NCBI GenBank assembly: GCA_963770935.1
Contig: CAVYRJ010000008.1
Location: 1 to 64,000, forward strand
DNA from: Candidatus Bathyarchaeota archaeon
GTDB lineage: Archaea; Thermoproteota; Bathyarchaeia; Bathyarchaeales; Bathycorpusculaceae
Direction: 5' to 3'
DNA length: 64,000 bases
The translations under genes were made by a program, and so were the position numbers. This document shows positions 33,561 through 57,080 of this stretch, in pieces. Under the pieces are notes generated by a model. It did not search any database. It was not told where the DNA came from and worked only from the letters and a program-made list of their open reading frames with translations. The first letter of the stretch is position 1; every line of letters begins with the position of its first letter.

Positions 33561-35738
33561 TTAGGAAAATTTCTTTTTATTTTCCATTTGTTTTTTAAGC
33601 TCTTGAAGATTCTTTATGTTCGGCGAATTTCTACGCTTTAACAAGAGCACGGATACAATTGCTGCTGCAACGACTACGACAATTATCACCACTACAACAA
33701 CTATAGGGTTGTTGGCATCTTGATTGCTATCAGTTTTAGCTGTTAAAGGAATGGTAAGTGTCAATGGTTGGCCATTATAATCCAAGATTTGATTTGTCTC
33801 TGGGTATCCTTGACTTATTATCTTAAAGGTATAACTTCCGGCTGAAGCGTTTTGGAATGAAACATAGCCTGTTTCGTTTGATATTTGGAGTAATGTCAGG
33901 GTTCCAGTTGGTTGGACAATCGAAGTAACAAGTGTGTTGTTTAGTGGGTTTCCTTGTTCATCTGTTATTTTGAAAGTTAGTGTTGCTGGAGTTGCGGTTA
34001 GTGTTTGTGTTGGGGTAGAGGTGGGGGTTGGGGTTGCAGTTGGAGTGGGTGTTGGGATTGCTGTCTGGTCTGGATCTGGTGCGACAGCTATCTGAGTTGT
34101 TCCTTGTGCACTTAAATAGCCAGGTTTTGAGCCGCTTGCCGTAATGGTGCAGCTGGTTGCTGTAGAAAAACTTGGGGCGGTAAAGCTTACGTTGTAGTTG
34201 CCATTTCCTTGTTCTGCTATTATTCCGAATGATCCACCCTTATTCGATGCAAAACTTATTGTCGCCCCCGTTACTGGGACTGAGTTAGCAGTTATGTACG
34301 CCATTATTGACGTTGTATAAGCGTTGGTTACGCTGTTTGGGTTCGATGTTAGCGTTATTTGCAGAGGTGAATAATCAATAAGGTTTGTTACTATCGAGGT
34401 TAGTCCTGTAGTGTAGCCTGAAGCTTGGGCAGTAATTGCTGTTTCTCCTGGAGAATTTGTTACAGTCAAGTTTCCAGTGGCTTGTGTTTTCCCAAAAGGA
34501 ATTGTTATAGTTGAGCTGACAACACCGATTGTTGGTTGTGAAGAAAAGAGATTTATGTTGACGTCAGCTTGAGGGTCTTTTGCTGGACGACCTTGAGTAT
34601 CTTGTAATTGAACTTGTATTGTTTGGTATGTCCCGTTGTCTGATGGTAGATTCATCGGGACGCAGTATATTCCAATTTTTGAGGGAATAAAGCCAAATGT
34701 GCTTATGGATTTGTGGTCCCACAGAAGGTCGGTGGCGACGGCAGTTAATGTTGCAGAGCCTGCTTTGTAAGTCGTGTTTAGAGTGGCTAAAGCATAGGGC
34801 TGCAGCTGTGGAATAATTATTTGGTCTGTTCTACAGATGGTTTGATCGCTTGACGCCAAGGTAACAATTTTATCTGTTGGATTTACAGCAACAAAACCCG
34901 TTGCATTTTGCAGTTCCACTGCAATTTGGGTGTATGAGTATTGGTCAGCTGGAACCTTTGTTGGACCTACAAATATTTTAAGTTGAGATGGGTTCGTCGC
35001 AACTGGAGTGGTTGTAATGATCAATTGGCTGGGGGTATATCCCTGCGTTACTGCAGTGATTGCTGCTAATTCAAAAGTAGCTTCTGTTTGTGCCTTTGTT
35101 GTTGTGGTGAAATTAGCCACCGCGTATGTTTGACCTTCAGGTATAGTTGTGGTTGAGGGAACTGTGCCAACACTGGTGTCTGAGCATGAAAGGGTAACTT
35201 GAATTCCGCCTTGAGGCGCTCTTGCAGGGTTACCGCTTGAATCCTGAAGTTGCAACATTATAGCTGCATAAGTATTCCCATCTGATGGTAGAGTAGAAGG
35301 AAATCCGTAGGCTGTTATAGCCGAGGGGATTGGACCGACAGTAGTCACAATTGCCTGTTCAGTAGCAAAGCCTGAGGCTGTGGCAGAAATTGATGTCGTT
35401 CCGGGGCTAAATGTTGTGTTAAAGTTTGCTGAAGCAAACGTGGTTCCTTTGAAAATTATGATAGATGAGTCCACAGTTCCTATGTTTATGAGGGATGATG
35501 AGAGGCTAATAGTAGTGTCTTGTAATGCTCTGGCTGGTTGCCCAGATGAATCTAGCAATTGCACGAAAATACAGTTATAAGTGTCATTATCTGCAAGTAC
35601 GCTTGTTGGGCCTGTACAAATGTTGAGTTTAAACGGGTCACTTGTAGCTGTACAGGAACTATTATTTTGATTAAATAAGACTAATGTCGATGTCACAACT
35701 AAAATTGCTATAGCAAAGATCACTGTTTTTTTGAACAT
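33561..35738 (-). CDS. Cell-surface protein with tandem Ig/invasin-like repeats, Pro-Thr linker and C-terminal TM anchor
   Basis: Signal peptide; four repeats of 'P..LP.D..TY..I.VQLQD..G.PA'; PTPTPT; TM followed by a basic tail. Confidence 0.85.
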   Translation of the reverse strand: MFKKTVIFAIAILVVTSTLVLFNQNNSSCTATSDPFKLNICTGPTSVLADNDTYNCIFVQLLDSSGQPARALQDTTISLSSSLINIGTVDSSIIIFKGTTFASANFNTTFSPGTTSISATASGFATEQAIVTTVGPIPSAITAYGFPSTLPSDGNTYAAIMLQLQDSSGNPARAPQGGIQVTLSCSDTSVGTVPSTTTIPEGQTYAVANFTTTTKAQTEATFELAAITAVTQGYTPSQLIITTTPVATNPSQLKIFVGPTKVPADQYSYTQIAVELQNATGFVAVNPTDKIVTLASSDQTICRTDQIIIPQLQPYALATLNTTYKAGSATLTAVATDLLWDHKSISTFGFIPSKIGIYCVPMNLPSDNGTYQTIQVQLQDTQGRPAKDPQADVNINLFSSQPTIGVVSSTITIPFGKTQATGNLTVTNSPGETAITAQASGYTTGLTSIVTNLIDYSPLQITLTSNPNSVTNAYTTSIMAYITANSVPVTGATISFASNKGGSFGIIAEQGNGNYNVSFTAPSFSTATSCTITASGSKPGYLSAQGTTQIAVAPDPDQTAIPTPTPTATPTPTSTPTQTLTATPATLTFKITDEQGNPLNNTLVTSIVQPTGTLTLLQISNETGYVSFQNASAGSYTFKIISQGYPETNQILDYNGQPLTLTIPLTAKTDSNQDANNPIVVVVVIIVVVVAAAIVSVLLLKRRNSPNIKNLQELKKQMENKKKFS

Positions 35739-46299: not shown

Positions 46300-48252
46300 C
46301 TATTCACCTCCGCATTGAAGGGTAGGTTCTAACGGGATAGTCATCGTAAAAGTAGTCCCTTTTCCCATGGCAGTCTTAACGCTTATCGTTCCTCCATGTG
46401 CTTCAACAATACGCTTACAGATTGCCAATCCAAAACCCATTCCTTGCGCTTTAGTTGTAAACAATGGAGCAAATAACTTGGGTAAAACATCGTCTGAAAT
46501 TCCAATACCTGTATCAGAGAAACCTATTCTTAATTTCCCATCTTCTTGTCCGCTGCTAATTGTTAATGTGCCTCCACTGGGCATTGCATCAATTGCGTTC
46601 TTGATTAAATTAACAAAAATACGTGTTAATTTGTTTACATCAGCTAAAAAAGTGACCTCACAAATTTGATCGCTTATAACAATAATCGTATTTGGAACGT
46701 TAGCCATTGTCAGGCTTTCAACTATCATTTTTTGTAATGAAACTTCTTTGAGATCTAGTCGAATTTCTCTGGAGAAATCAAGCAGATCATTGATTATTTT
46801 ATTTGAATATTCGACACAGCGACCAATTATCTCAATCATTTCTTGTTCTTGGGGAGTAGAACAAACATTCTTTCTTTTCAAGAAGTAAACCGCATTCTTA
46901 ATGCCGGTTAAGGGATTTCGCAAGTCGTGACCAATCATTCCCGATAACTCTCCGATTGCCGCTAACCGCTCAGATTTTATTAGTTGAGCCTGTGCTTTCT
47001 CTAGTTCCTTGGTCTTTTGATGAACAACTTCTTCAAGAGTCTTTGAATACTTCTCTAATTTTTTTTCCATGTCTTTCCGTGACGTTATATCAGCTACGAG
47101 CGCAAGAGTGCCTATGCAGTCTCCTTCATCATCAGTTATTTGGGATGCAGCGATACTAGTGTAAATATGAGACCCATCTTTTCTGGCAAACTCGTACTCA
47201 AAATTTCCACTAACCCCACAAGTAAATTTCCCCAAGAAATCCTTCGCTAAAGGACCTTCCCTGCTATCCATGAAATCAAAAAGCTTCTTTCCCAACATTT
47301 CACTGCGGCTGTAGCCTAAAATATCTGTCATTCTGCGATTAACAAAAACAGTTTCATACTCTTTTGAAAGAACCCAAACACCTTCGTGAGCAAGCTCAAC
47401 CAATTGCCGATACTTTGCTTCGCTCTCACTCAAGCTCCTTTGGACTCGTCTAATTTCGGTTATGTCACGAAAGATACATTGGAGATATTTTTTACCTTTT
47501 AATTTAATGCTCTTAGTTGTTACTAGAATATTCTTTGTTTCGCAAGTCTTAGTTTGATGCTCTGTTTCAAACTCTCCGTCCCCAGCTTTTAATAGCTCAT
47601 TAACGTTTTTCCTAATTTTGCCTGGCTTATTGACCTCTATATCTACTAAGGCAAGTTTTTCGAATTCATCTCTGGAATATCCAAGTTGAGTATGAGCAAG
47701 ATCATTAAATTCAATAAAGCCGGTGGTCTTGGGGTCTACGACTAAAACTCCGACAGGAGCTTGATTAAACAATGCATGATAACGCTGCTCCGCTTCTCTT
47801 GACTTTTCTTCGGCTTGCTTTCTGCGCGTAATGTCTTTAACTACTCCAACAGCGCTCCATTTTCCTGACTTTTTTAGGGGCGAAATTGAAAGTTCAATTG
47901 AGATTTCAGAACCATCTTTCCGATTTCCAACCAACTCAACATTACCTACAGTAAAATAACCCATACCTGTGTCAGCAAAAATATCCATACTCGACTTAAT
48001 TCGTTCTTTGCCTTCAAGACACAAAGTTTTAGGGACAAGAAGTTCGTGTACACTTCTTCCCAAAGCTTCAGCACTTGAGTACCCAAATATTTTCTCAGCG
48101 GCAGAATTCCAAAATGTAATTTTACCGATATCATCCACTAAAATTATTGCATCCTTTAGAGAGTTAGCTATCGTTTGAAAATTCTCTTCATTTTTCACTA
48201 CATCGACTATGCTTAAGACGGCGACGGAACTAGATTCTTGTGTGATATTCAT
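46300..48252 (-). CDS. Cytoplasmic histidine kinase with three PAS domains
   Basis: Three PAS/PAC repeats, GHDLRNPL, NLIKNAIDAM, GMGFGL. Confidence 0.95.
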   Translation of the reverse strand: MNITQESSSVAVLSIVDVVKNEENFQTIANSLKDAIILVDDIGKITFWNSAAEKIFGYSSAEALGRSVHELLVPKTLCLEGKERIKSSMDIFADTGMGYFTVGNVELVGNRKDGSEISIELSISPLKKSGKWSAVGVVKDITRRKQAEEKSREAEQRYHALFNQAPVGVLVVDPKTTGFIEFNDLAHTQLGYSRDEFEKLALVDIEVNKPGKIRKNVNELLKAGDGEFETEHQTKTCETKNILVTTKSIKLKGKKYLQCIFRDITEIRRVQRSLSESEAKYRQLVELAHEGVWVLSKEYETVFVNRRMTDILGYSRSEMLGKKLFDFMDSREGPLAKDFLGKFTCGVSGNFEYEFARKDGSHIYTSIAASQITDDEGDCIGTLALVADITSRKDMEKKLEKYSKTLEEVVHQKTKELEKAQAQLIKSERLAAIGELSGMIGHDLRNPLTGIKNAVYFLKRKNVCSTPQEQEMIEIIGRCVEYSNKIINDLLDFSREIRLDLKEVSLQKMIVESLTMANVPNTIIVISDQICEVTFLADVNKLTRIFVNLIKNAIDAMPSGGTLTISSGQEDGKLRIGFSDTGIGISDDVLPKLFAPLFTTKAQGMGFGLAICKRIVEAHGGTISVKTAMGKGTTFTMTIPLEPTLQCGGE

Positions 48253-52848: not shown

Positions 52849-52926
52849 TGGTGGACCGAGAGGGATTTGAACCCGCGACTTCCGCGTTGCGAACGCGGCG
52901 ATCATACCGAACTGATCTACCGGCCC
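52849..52926 (-). tRNA. tRNA-Ala(CGC)
   Basis: GGGCCGG...CCGCG-TTCGCAA-CGCGG...GGTTCAAATCC...CGGTCCACCA; full cloverleaf with encoded CCA. Confidence 0.95.
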
Positions 52927-54686: not shown

Positions 54687-54884
54687 CATCTCAGAAAAAA
54701 CTTTTGAAGTCTCTAGAATGCGTGTGATAACAAGCCTGTGATAGGTTTTTGGGCATTTGTTTTGGGGTGGTTTTTTTAAAAAAAGGCTATTTAATCTTTG
54801 GTAAAAAGTTCGCACATGAATATTTCCAAAAAAAGTGGAGTTTAACGGTTTCTCCGCTTTTATTTTTTCTTCCACTTAATTTTT

Positions 54885-55118
54885 TGCAGGTCAAGTCTGA
54901 GCCTTATTGTTGCGTACAGCCCACCTAAGCGATGTCTTTGACCGCTGCAGATTTTATGCGCCGTTTTGAACCTGCAACTCAAAGCTAAGGTGCCACAACA
55001 CTATGCATGTTCAGCCCACTGAGGCAAAGTCTTAGTCGCGCACTAATATTTCGCTGTTTGAATCAGCACGCATCTATGCCTCAATGCATTGCATCTAAAG
55101 CTTGCTCCTTGACCTGCA
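54885..55118 (-). ncRNA. Novel structured RNA closed by an 11-bp terminal stem and a canonical BHB motif; predicted ~205-nt excised/circular RNA (54897-55101)
   Basis: TGCAGGTCAAG/CTTGACCTGCA; 4-bp GAGC/GCTC helix with 3-nt purine bulges AAG and AGA; two long G-U-rich hairpins; no ORF. Confidence 0.75.
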
Positions 55119-55140
55119 TATTCTACTTATCACTATCTTC

Positions 55141-55156
55141 ATAATAAATATTGCGA
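55141..55156 (-). promoter_or_regulatory. Putative BRE/TATA for the BHB RNA
   Basis: CGCAATA-TTTATTAT located ~25-30 nt upstream of the RNA 5' stem. Confidence 0.5.
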
Positions 55157-55346
55157 CATTTGTGCTACATAATGAGACAAAAATGTCCCATTTGTAACAT
55201 AAGAATATATGCTGGGAAACTAAAAGAATCGCTGTGACCAGTTTTTTCATATAAAAAAGAAATTTCACATTTTGGCAATTGAAAAATGTGTTATTTAGAA
55301 TTGGGTCGCGGTTTTGGTTGTTCAGTTTTCTTTATTTTTGAGGATC

Positions 55347-55511
55347 TTGGTTACTTCCACAAGCAGCATTGTTACAAGAACCGACGTTAAGAACGTGGTA
55401 GAACGTTATAGAACCATGCCAGGTTTGGGAAGCTACGACACAAGAATGGACTTCAACAATAACTACGGAGCAGAAATCGCTGAAATCTCAACAGTTGCCG
55501 CCAAGATGTAA
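55347..55511 (+). CDS. Small hypothetical protein (~54 aa)
   Basis: GAGGA-preceded TTG start, followed by a T-rich terminator. Confidence 0.5.
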   Translation: MVTSTSSIVTRTDVKNVVERYRTMPGLGSYDTRMDFNNNYGAEIAEISTVAAKM

Positions 55512-55615
55512 GAAATTATGTGCCAAAATTTACCCTATTTTCTTTTGTTTTCTCTTGCTTCTAAACGGTTAAGTTAATACGTTTATTTTGCATAAGAAAT
55601 CTTTAGTGGCTAACG

Positions 55616-55798
55616 ATGGCTAACAAAGGAAAAAGTAGTGCAGCAACTGATACGCCCAAAGAAGTAGCGTTACCCTGTGGTTGCGTATACCAGGATAAAG
55701 GTTGGATGCTTACCCGAAGCAGCGAATGCGAATACCATAAACGAAAAAGAACCACAAAGCGTCCGTACAGGCCTAAAGCTGAATGCGTAAGACCATAA
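55616..55798 (+). CDS. Small basic putative Zn-binding protein
   Basis: LPCGC...CEYH; ATG start. Confidence 0.5.
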   Translation: MANKGKSSAATDTPKEVALPCGCVYQDKGWMLTRSSECEYHKRKRTTKRPYRPKAECVRP

Positions 55799-55983
55799 AA
55801 AGGAAATGCTACATTCGCGTTTTTTTTTAGTTAATGGTTAATCAAGTAATCGTTTGATTTACATCTATTTTGAGGGGTCCAAGCAGCGAAACAAGTGCTC
55901 AAGCAAACTATTGACACCTTAGAATCCTTTTGTTGCAAGTTTTCCACAATCCATTTAACCATCAAAACCAATTCCTAAGCACC

Positions 55984-57080
55984 ATGACATTTCCCCAATC
56001 GTCTCCTGCACTTAAGACGCAAAGTTCCGCAAAAAGAATCCTAAAAATTCTCCTTCAAGTAGTATTCATGGTTGCTATTTTCGCCGCTTTGCTTTGGTAT
56101 GTCGGAATAGGTTCACTGTATGATGCATTACTCACCATAAAGGCGAGTACTTGCTTCTTGCTTTTCTAATGTATTTTGGAATAAATCTCCTCTTTACTGT
56201 AAGGCTCAGACGCGTCCTAAGCAAAGACGGAGTAAAAACGTCTTTTGGAAAAACACTTCTTGCCCAATATGCAGGAATGTTAACCAGCGATGTAACCCCC
56301 GGACGCTCAGGATACATCCTAACTCCAGTTTACCTACGAGACCAAAATGTGCCTGCGTCAAAAGGTCTTTCAAGTATTTTAGGTATACAAACCATAGAGT
56401 TTTTAGTGAAAGTAATCGGTGGAGTAGGCGCAGTAATTTATTTAGTCACATATGTACCTACAGCGACGTGGAATGAATTATTTCCCCAAACAGTTGCAGG
56501 GATAAATGTGGGGTTGCTAGTCGCGGGATTAGGTATAGCGTTAATGCTTGTAGGAGCTATTGTGCTCGCGCTTTTCACGTGGTCCCAGAGAGCCATTTCA
56601 GTTTTTGACCGCATCGCAAATTCCAGATACCTTAAAAGGTTTACAGGCGGCTTGATGGGGAAACTTGGAGAATACAAAGAAAGCTCCCATAGTACCCGAA
56701 GAGCTATTCCGGAGATAATTATCTTAACATTCGCATGTTGGCTTCTGAAAGGCTTGGAATGGTACTTCCTTGGGTTAGCGTTAGGAATTATCCATATACC
56801 TTGGATAGCTTACTTTTTGATTCACCCGTTAGTGACAGCATTAGCATTTGTCCCTATAACCCCCGCTGGAGCTGGCGTGCAAGAATTTGGAATCATCGGA
56901 ATCCTTGGACTTCTCGGAGTTGCGGCTGGCCCCGCAGGCGTATTTGCATTGCTTGCTCGCGGATTACTCATCTTTGAAGACCTCGTAGGAATACCCCAAA
57001 TTGTAAAATCTACAAGCCTAATCATTACACACAAAAAACCTCAAGAAACAACACTGCCGCCCTCAGCACCGCCACTTTAA
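55984..57080 (+). CDS. Lysylphosphatidylglycerol-synthase TM / UPF0104 flippase-like protein (frameshift near 56145)
   Basis: SDVTPGRSG, PITPAGAGVQE. Confidence 0.85.

Follow-up and report, generated by a model that had tools for sequence, protein, structure and literature searches.

What is made from a locus whose two pseudo-symmetric hairpins each carry an apical loop and a basal bulge able to base pair? The locus lies on the minus strand, around position 55000, of a stretch of the genome of Candidatus Bathyarchaeota archaeon that we refer to as the window (64,000 nucleotides; positions 1 to 64,000 of the forward strand of contig CAVYRJ010000008.1, assembly GCA_963770935.1); coordinates are window positions unless a contig or locus handle precedes them. 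Taking the evidence together, we think it probable that this region encodes, as an independent gene, a circular non-coding RNA of the Bathyarchaeia, which is made through a motif of the bulge-helix-bulge (BHB) type, is assembled from modules with pseudoknots in cis and may function as a scaffold.

A BHB motif and a 205-nt ring

Both hairpins are encoded on the minus strand, and all the features that a first-pass annotation of this DNA had listed are present in the sequence. The parts of the gene that bear on its excision are as follows.

55108-55117, minus strand: 5' strand of terminal helix h, GCAGGUCAAG, pairing with 54895-54886 (8 of 10 pairs changed on both sides, 92.2% of cells paired)
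54886-54895, minus strand: 3' strand of terminal helix h, CUUGACCUGC, supported by covariation
55101-55107, minus strand: 5' half of the BHB, GAGC at 55107-55104 and the 3-nt bulge AAG at 55103-55101, cut between 55102 and 55101
54896-54902, minus strand: 3' half of the BHB, GCUC at 54902-54899 and the 3-nt bulge AGA at 54898-54896, cut between 54897 and 54896
54897-55101, minus strand: mature 205-nt circular RNA (RNA nt 19-223), with 54897 ligated to 55101 in RNA contigs
55096-55101, minus strand: strand GCUUUA of a putative post-excision helix, which may pair with UAAGGC at 54906-54901

The terminal part of the RNA is a canonical 3-4-3 BHB, in which a GAGC/GCUC helix separates the bulges AAG and AGA on opposite strands. 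Its 4-bp helix is 100% paired in the genus alignment A1, which holds 23 full-length sequences and leaves out L021 (identical to L003), L025 and L026 (overlapping L020 and L012) and L020 itself (three units). We also collected 72 distinct full-length RNAs, selected with a motif pattern that required a complementary helix of 11 nt: here the outer pair of the 4-bp helix is G-C in 27, G-U in 23, A-U in 22 and unpaired in none, the remaining letters of that helix being fixed by the search pattern. On its outer side the motif is flanked by the 10-bp helix h, and on its inner side by CUU/AAG, which is 100% paired and shows no double change (one pair is invariant and two changed on one side).

The RNA stretch is present in 20 public runs, 12 of which are RNA runs, and the share of sampled words recovered was 0.65-0.81 in RNA runs and 0.65-1.00 in DNA runs. 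Contigs were compared from four of the 24 listed runs, three of them RNA runs of three studies and one a DNA run. Each RNA run yielded one contig (224, 232 and 231 nt) covering 54893-55101; past 55101 these contigs continue with the letters of 54897-54909, and before 54893 they carry the letters of 55088-55097 (55085-55097 in X8). Positions 54893-54896 are placed there because AAGC resembles AAGT, which accounts for the single 'other letter' in the comparison. Both ends of every RNA contig therefore cross the same junction, at which 55101 is joined to 54897, whilst the contig from the DNA run is collinear with the genome over 54840-55129. A BHB is cut after the second base of each bulge, as is known from tRNA introns, and the junction is exactly the one predicted from such cuts: the product is a 205-nt circular RNA. 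The window's genome encodes both a splicing endonuclease EndA domain (PF01974, C8:188471-188725) and RtcB (PF01139, C3:61750-63060), each match being over its cut-off. No reading frame without a stop runs around any of the 23 circles, and the RNA is not coding.

The helix GCUUUA/UAAGGC, which is favoured by RNAalifold, keeps its six pairs in 23 of 23 sequences, with no double changes. It excludes part of the BHB pairing and so can form after excision only; in the ring it would be capped by the 4-nt loop UCAG, which would span the ligation junction. By hand pairing, the helix of this type in one-unit members continues unbroken into P0, the outer helix of the module described below.

A repeated module supported by covariation

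The model from alignment A1 consists of the 10-bp terminal helix, the 4-bp helix with 3-nt bulges on opposite strands, a three-way junction and two arms, each arm being composed of P0, P1, an asymmetric internal loop, P2 and an apical loop of 14-15 nt. In the window the arms fall as follows.

55005-55092, minus strand: module A, with P0-A at 55092-55087/55009-55005 and P1-A at 55086-55077/55026-55017
55072-55076 and 55027-55037, minus strand: hinge loop of module A, UAGAU at 55076-55072 opposite GACUAAGACUU at 55037-55027
55038-55071, minus strand: P2-A at 55071-55062/55047-55038, enclosing the apical loop at 55061-55048
55053-55056, minus strand: loop strand CAGC of pseudoknot A, pairing with GCUG at 55015-55012 in the basal bulge of its own hairpin
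55012-55015, minus strand: bulge strand GCUG of pseudoknot A, judged by its pairing in the genus and class-wide
54908-55000, minus strand: module B, with P0-B at 55000-54996/54912-54908 and P1-B at 54992-54985/54929-54922
54979-54984 and 54930-54943, minus strand: hinge loop of module B, CUUUGA at 54984-54979 opposite GGUCAAAGACAUCG at 54943-54930
54944-54978, minus strand: P2-B at 54978-54969/54953-54944, enclosing the apical loop at 54968-54954
54960-54963, minus strand: loop strand CGGC of pseudoknot B, pairing with GCUG at 54920-54917, with one G-U in the window sequence
54917-54920, minus strand: bulge strand GCUG of pseudoknot B, with genus covariation

Across A1, the nested structure together with the cis pseudoknots is 92.5% paired (1646 cells), and 40 of its 73 pairs show double changes; none of 500 shuffles reached any of five measures, and slid controls were 29-40% paired. 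A second alignment, A2, sets 23 A units beside 22 B units (the B unit of L011, in which the bulge motif is missing, is omitted) and is 92.2% paired, with double changes in 19 of 24 pairs. The suggestion that hairpins A and B are equivalent modules is thereby borne out, as the two align with each other column by column, and the pseudo-symmetry is explained as a tandem duplication. A covariance model of the unit (R1; the unit models have 95-96 positions) then recovered 101 units, 87 of them distinct, which form the class-wide alignment A4; this was fitted to the nested helices alone, without use of the pseudoknot, and is 94.5% paired with double changes in 23 of 24 pairs.

The class-wide alignment refines the module in two respects. 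Mutual information in A4 adds a pair 22-78 (AU36/UA24/CG6), which lengthens P1, so that the internal loop shrinks to GA opposite GA..AAGAC. By column entropy, the hinge and the pseudoknot junction stand out as two invariant centres rich in purines, whilst the helices vary freely. At the hinge, the GA of columns 23-24 and the GA of AAGAC (columns 75-76) are nearly invariant and placed in a kink-turn-like manner.

The motifs first described in the window were all recovered. The repeated motif GUGGGCUG(A/U)AC is found at 55019-55009 and 54924-54914 on the minus strand, and AAAC(A/G)GCG occurs in both apical loops, UCAAACAGCGAAAU (55061-55048) and CAAAACGGCGCAUAA (54968-54954). The basal stems are there too, at a different length from the seven or so base pairs first given: the repeated motif's GUG pairs with CAU/CAC, which brings the stem to 10 bp in A and to 8 bp in B. 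What is left, 7-8 bases, makes up the 3'-side bulge (GGCUGAA or GGCUGUAC) between P1 and the outer helix P0.

Two further pairings were considered and set aside. RNAalifold also proposed a pairing of GCAAUG with the bulge (29-110, 30-109, 32-107), which has one-sided changes only and competes with the covarying pseudoknot; and a reading of the apical loop and G66-A67 as a K-loop or tandem G-A falls on variable positions.

Each loop pairs with the bulge of its own hairpin

The base pairing of loop and bulge that the first-pass annotation proposed is real, as judged by covariation across homologues, and it takes place within each module. The cis pseudoknots are 97.8% paired in the genus (A1), 98.3% on A2 and 98.5% class-wide (A4). 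Pseudoknot A is 100% paired in the 23 genus sequences, and three of the four pairs of pseudoknot B show double changes in the genus: 164-213 (GC16/AU5/GU1), 166-211 (CG10/UA7/UG4) and 165-212 (GC20/AU1). Class-wide, the first pair reads CG82/UA2 and the second GC40/AU36/GU9/other 1 (A4), the second being the top mutual-information signal outside the nested helices, save for 22-78.

The alternative offered for the same letters was a reciprocal lock, in which loop A would pair with bulge B and loop B with bulge A in a two-fold symmetric fold. The window itself speaks for it: the complementarity of loop A ACAGC to bulge B GCUGU is complete, giving five perfect pairs where the cis pairing has 4 bp, and loop B CGGC matches bulge A GCUG with one G-U, a combination that is 92.4% paired in the genus. 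However, loop A and bulge B are only 73% paired across the genus, A65-213 being unpaired in 16 of 22 cells, and show no double changes at all, so that the covariation anticipated between loops and bulges exists, yet in cis rather than crosswise. The same division is seen in 19 further adjacent two-unit RNAs, where pairing is complete in cis in 16 and in trans in 8 (the unit pairs were not de-duplicated, and L059 equals L097 in sequence). One-unit members (22 of the 72 RNAs) possess their own bulge alone, and a three-unit member is known, so a two-fold lock cannot apply to these. The crosswise match arises only from the near-identity of the letters that pair in the two modules. Each loop thus pairs with the bulge of its own hairpin and not with that of the other, and we regard a crosswise lock as highly unlikely.

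A link to tRNAs had also been raised, resting on the identity of the bulge heptamer GGCUGUA with part of a tRNA-Tyr 2.7 kb away and on the resemblance of the heptamer GGCUGAA to a tRNA-Phe anticodon arm. There is no such tRNA-Tyr: ARAGORN and Rfam give one tRNA in the window, a tRNA-Ala(CGC) at 52849-52926. GGCTGTA occurs 10 times in the window where 5.06 are expected, and none of the occurrences besides the RNA's own copy lies within 2.7 kb, the nearest others being at 47307 and 62274 (window count). With no tRNA-Tyr, a common heptamer and GCUG engaged in the pseudoknot, the anticodon-arm resemblance falls away.

Copy number and distribution

By BLASTN with 261 bases, the RNA was found in 18 of 24 other genomes of the same genus and in none of 16 genomes of other families. 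With the covariance model R1 matches extended to 74 of 151 genomes of the window's order, distributed by family as 33/34 (f11), 4/4 (f5), 19/35 (f7), 13/35 (f1), 2/3 (f12) and 2/25 (f6), with no R1 match in six families of the order. In the class sample, where matches occur in other orders too, R1 matched 25 of 151 genomes and a broader model, R2, matched 26 of 151; in the same phylum outside the class, R1 matched 0 of 131 genomes (counted from family tallies). Since R2 finds essentially the same genomes as R1, the patchiness is not simply a bias of the model, and a distribution so patchy speaks against an essential housekeeping role.

A motif scan with one genome per species returned at least 118 stretches. 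Among the matches listed, all 50 stretches with archaeal titles are named Bathyarchaeota, Bathyarchaeia, 'uncultured archaeon' or 'Crenarchaeota archaeon', and 49 of the 50 contain a model-verified unit, the exception sitting at the edge of its stretch; among the same matches, none of the 68 stretches with bacterial titles contains one. Over these searches the family was thus seen in the class Bathyarchaeia only. Viral contigs gave six pattern matches, none of which fits the model. Rfam gave no match for the RNA on either strand, whether at the gathering threshold, at E<=10 for the window region or at E<=1 for six diverse members.

Predicted ring sizes in the 72 RNAs follow the number of units: 22 rings have 100-109 nt, 49 have 190-209 nt and a single one has about 285 nt. 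The three-unit gene, L020 (G013:C12, ~34745-35062), has unit A tandemly duplicated ahead of unit B, with a predicted ring of about 285 nt. The window's genome itself contains a second two-unit copy (L002, C13:8644-8868), 71% identical to the first, which has its own terminal helix and BHB letters with an A-U outer BHB pair. A partial second copy, L040:2890-2987(+), lies about 1.3 kb from an intact gene on the opposite strand and matches unit A through P1, after which the bulge motif GGGCUG is missing; this is likely to be a duplicate that has decayed. In X6, a second RNA contig of lower depth matches both ends of a 97-nt stretch within 54960-55101, with 99 other letters between them, and is most simply read as the form of the RNA in a related organism of that sample.

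Genomic setting and a 217-aa neighbour

The ends of the transcription unit are probably marked by two further features.

55141-55148, minus strand: TATA-like box TTTATTAT, a likely archaeal promoter judged from the sequence; it sits upstream of the terminal helix, about 24-31 nt from that helix's first base
54828-54875, minus strand: 3' trailer, a hairpin GUGGA at 54875-54871/UCCAC at 54839-54835 followed by seven U at 54834-54828

A comparable A/T-rich box stands at the same upstream distance in 25 of 25 homologue flanks inspected, and a longer promoter-like block is kept in other families. The trailer, whose hairpin and T-run have counterparts in many, though not all, same-genus homologues, is likely to be the end of the primary transcript, thrown away together with the 5' leader. 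Upstream of the gene, about 1 kb of the window (55150-56150) contains no open reading frame of more than 79 aa and no Rfam match.

Elsewhere the window encodes the archaellum protein FlaI, archaeal DnaG, a family-B polymerase and a crenarchaeal-type SSB. Within the window's genus, no flanking protein is common to the loci beyond close species triplets. In other families the RNA gene is flanked on one side by the 3' end of an ATP-dependent DNA ligase gene and on the other by a divergent gene for a 217-aa protein, an order seen at about 40 loci (copies of the 217-aa gene include L037:750-1400(-) and L066:762-1409(-)). The window's genome has this gene too, unlinked to the RNA (G000:C9:114531-115154, L191). 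The protein has no Pfam or NCBIfam match, and in the Atlas its family comprises hypothetical proteins centred on Bathyarchaeota. Its predicted fold is confident (predicted local distance difference test score, pLDDT, 90.8) and bears a weak likeness to PD-(D/E)xK nucleases (best Foldseek E 1.4e-3), with invariant D, E-x-E and K residues.

The protein occurs in 74 of 151 class genomes. Of the 25 genomes that match the RNA strongly, 23 have it, the two exceptions being 85% and 68% complete. A further 51 class genomes have the protein without a detectable RNA; in 18 of these protein-only genomes the surroundings of the 217-aa gene were searched, with filters off, for a diverged RNA, and none was found (best E 0.38). 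We treat the association as a lead and not as evidence of partnership.

One family has a DUF2096 gene adjoining the RNA in place of the 217-aa gene (L060:1814-2539(+)). Its product, a four-helix bundle with a KH-like domain, is unrelated to the 217-aa protein, and the arrangement is seen at two loci that are apparently the same contig (L060, L167). Among other non-coding RNAs, the signal recognition particle (SRP) RNA of the window's genome gives a normal Rfam match (C8:290903-291217), and the archaeal RNase P RNA model RF00373 gives no match in this genome, which is 91% complete.

Weighing other identities

One alternative is an H/ACA-like guide RNA. Archaeal H/ACA RNAs have one, two or three hairpins, each with an internal loop above a lower stem of about 10 bp, and the RNA described here shares with H/ACA sRNAs its tandem hairpins in variable number, their succession of lower stem, internal loop, upper stem and short 3' single-stranded motif, and even ACA triplets a few bases 3' of both window hairpins; its internal loops would on this reading be pseudouridylation pockets bound by Cbf5 and L7Ae. 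The defining features of such a guide are lacking, however. Once pair 22-78 is formed, the 5' strand of the internal loop is GA alone, and its 3' strand, GA..AAGAC, is conserved in both modules and across the class; a loop that is class-conserved and near-identical in both modules cannot encode different targets. The apical loop is taken up by the pseudoknot, leaving no K-loop, and neither a K-turn nor a K-loop was found in the upper stem. In place of a fixed ACA (ANA) box, P1 is followed on its 3' side by G-GGC(Y)G, which the pseudoknot occupies, and the triplet after the bulge varies (GAC, GGC, AAC, GUC). No H/ACA model of Rfam matches, even at E<=10, and we give an H/ACA-like guide very little credence; nothing was found in support of self-cleavage either, and no Rfam match accompanies either role. 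Another reading is a module acting as a sensor or catalyst, that is, a metabolite or ion aptamer or a ribozyme to which the ring would add stability only. Two invariant purine-rich centres among freely varying helices are typical of ligand pockets, the variable number of modules recalls tandem aptamers, and in some riboswitches a hinge brings a loop to a distant strand. Against this stand the lack of any regulatable gene next to or downstream of the RNA and of any neighbour conserved in the window's genus, the lack of a riboswitch or ribozyme match in Rfam, and the lack of an evident cleavage site in an RNA whose contigs are intact circles, and we consider this identity unlikely.

The ring could also be beside the point. 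BHB excision usually serves exon joining, so the ring might be an intron-like spacer, with the ligated leader and trailer, or the linear precursor, as the functional molecule. Yet sequence conservation is confined to the excised part: leader and trailer keep complementarity only, with 8 of 10 pairs covarying, and trailers differ between species. In three studies the RNA contigs cover the ring and leave the flanks uncovered (the missing cover is given no weight as evidence of absence), and a by-product seems scarcely credible. A mobile, viroid-like or virus-derived replicon, as opposed to a cellular gene, would account for the patchy distribution, for several loci per genome in some species (units lie at four places in G040, for example) and for the absence of conserved synteny in the window's genus. 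However, the RNA is DNA-encoded behind a promoter-like box, the order of DNA ligase, RNA and 217-aa gene is kept in about 40 loci of other families, none of the six pattern matches in viral contigs fits the model, and the circle has no endless reading frame; such a replicon is barely conceivable.

Several points also count against the identity we prefer, a BHB-made circular RNA gene with cis-pseudoknotted modules. The circle was seen in assembled contigs rather than raw reads, with four of the 24 listed runs compared. The shuffle statistics are inflated by relatedness among the sequences, the fold is no more stable thermodynamically than shuffles (z = -0.41; neither strand is significant, with z-scores of -0.41 and +0.54), and pseudoknot A is without any double change within the genus, its support coming from the class-wide alignment. 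The hinge would fall outside the strict kink-turn definition (a bulge of 3 nt, then tandem sheared G-A/A-G pairs beside a Watson-Crick stem), with a loop of 6 nt in place of 3 and an extra C, and the G of its AAGAC (G75) is A in several members. The family is patchy, being found in 26 of 151 class genomes, with some whole families lacking a match. Finally, we infer the acting enzymes, the geometry of the hinge and the function from the features above.

A proposed pathway from transcript to ring

A primary transcript of roughly 290 nt would fold at its ends into the 10-bp helix and then the canonical BHB (3-nt bulge, 4 bp, 3-nt bulge). The archaeal splicing endonuclease would cut each bulge after its second base, an RtcB-type ligase would join the excised 205-nt piece into a ring, and the short leader and trailer would be discarded. 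The ring may then take the form of a three-way junction, with the 6-bp closing helix and its UCAG cap as one branch and the two homologous arms, descended from a tandem duplication, as the others. Each arm would be an autonomous fold-back module, in which P1 and P2 (about 10 bp, or about one helical turn, each) are separated by the purine-rich asymmetric loop GA/GA..AAGAC. This hinge would bend sharply and fold P2 back along P1, so that C(A/G)G(C/U) in the apical loop could meet (G/A)C(C/U)G at the P0/P1 junction, where the bulge lies.

As modules occur singly, doubly and in triplicate, each probably acts alone as one binding site, and the first-pass suggestion of two equivalent binding sites is plausible. 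The ring may be a long-lived scaffold whose one to three modules would each dock the same protein, or less likely the same small ligand, the number of units setting the stoichiometry, and circularity would shield the RNA from exonucleases in slow-growing cells. A protein-binding scaffold or subunit of a ribonucleoprotein (RNP) is quite possible, though we put it forward tentatively; a ligand sensor or catalyst carries the low likelihood already given, and the remainder belongs to something not yet imagined.

Relation to known circular and pseudoknotted RNAs

Known archaeal substrates of BHB processing are tRNA introns and rRNA, and Thermoproteus has a permuted SRP RNA that is circularised. Like the latter, the RNA described here is an archaeal circular non-coding RNA other than rRNA or tRNA; unlike it, it is distinct from the SRP RNA of its genome, which has its own normal Rfam match. 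At the level of fold, SAM-I riboswitches, with their P2 kink-turn and pseudoknot, and HL-out pseudoknots are bacterial cis-regulatory aptamers that invite comparison: a sharp bend between stacked helices would likewise return the apical loop to a strand near the base of the helix, although here the arrangement is a repeated module of a free archaeal circular RNA, with a hinge that is apparently no canonical kink-turn. The likeness to H/ACA sRNAs ends, as described above, at a conserved pocket, a pseudoknotted loop and the absence of a fixed ACA.

The BHB-dependent circles of archaea comprise excised tRNA introns, circular pre-16S/23S rRNA intermediates and circular 23S rRNA (PMC12918454, PMC7714728, 10.64898/2026.03.23.713588); one of these studies, on circular rRNAs, includes Bathyarchaeia (PMC12918454). 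With these circles our RNA shares the two 3-nt bulges 4 bp apart with flanking helices, excision at the bulges and joining of the ends, and the endonuclease and RtcB genes in the genome. It differs in coming from a dedicated gene, with a likely promoter to itself, of which the ring is the sole conserved product; it is neither rRNA, tRNA intron nor processing intermediate, and it has a modular pseudoknot fold of its own. Circular isoforms are described for the omega-RNAs of IS200/IS605 elements in archaea (PMC12558985), which are again circular non-coding RNAs other than rRNA or tRNA; unlike those, the present gene has no transposase near it. Rfam shows no similarity between the ring RNA and either SRP RNA or omega-RNAs. 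Full-text searches, with supplementary files outside their scope, returned no description of this RNA. The processing route is known; what appears to be new is the type of gene, together with its fold and the family.

What is unusual is a promoter-driven gene dedicated to a small structured ring, conserved across an uncultured class and present in the metatranscriptomes of several studies. We suggest, as a tentative possibility, that these are undescribed, class-specific genes whose sole product is a BHB-made ring with one to three new pseudoknot modules, which would serve a Bathyarchaeia-specific RNP as RNA subunit or as regulator, possibly with the neighbouring 217-aa nuclease-like protein, or a trans-acting ligand sensor. 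A covariance model is now available for annotating the family in Bathyarchaeia genomes, and the system is testable: it has exact cut sites, four to five loop-bulge pairs open to compensatory change, and natural versions with one, two and three modules. It allows the role of circularity and of modular pseudoknots to be asked in slow-growing archaea of sediment and peat. If the ring does act as an RNP subunit or regulator, or as a trans-acting sensor, it would represent a type of functional circular RNA for which prokaryotes offer no known example.

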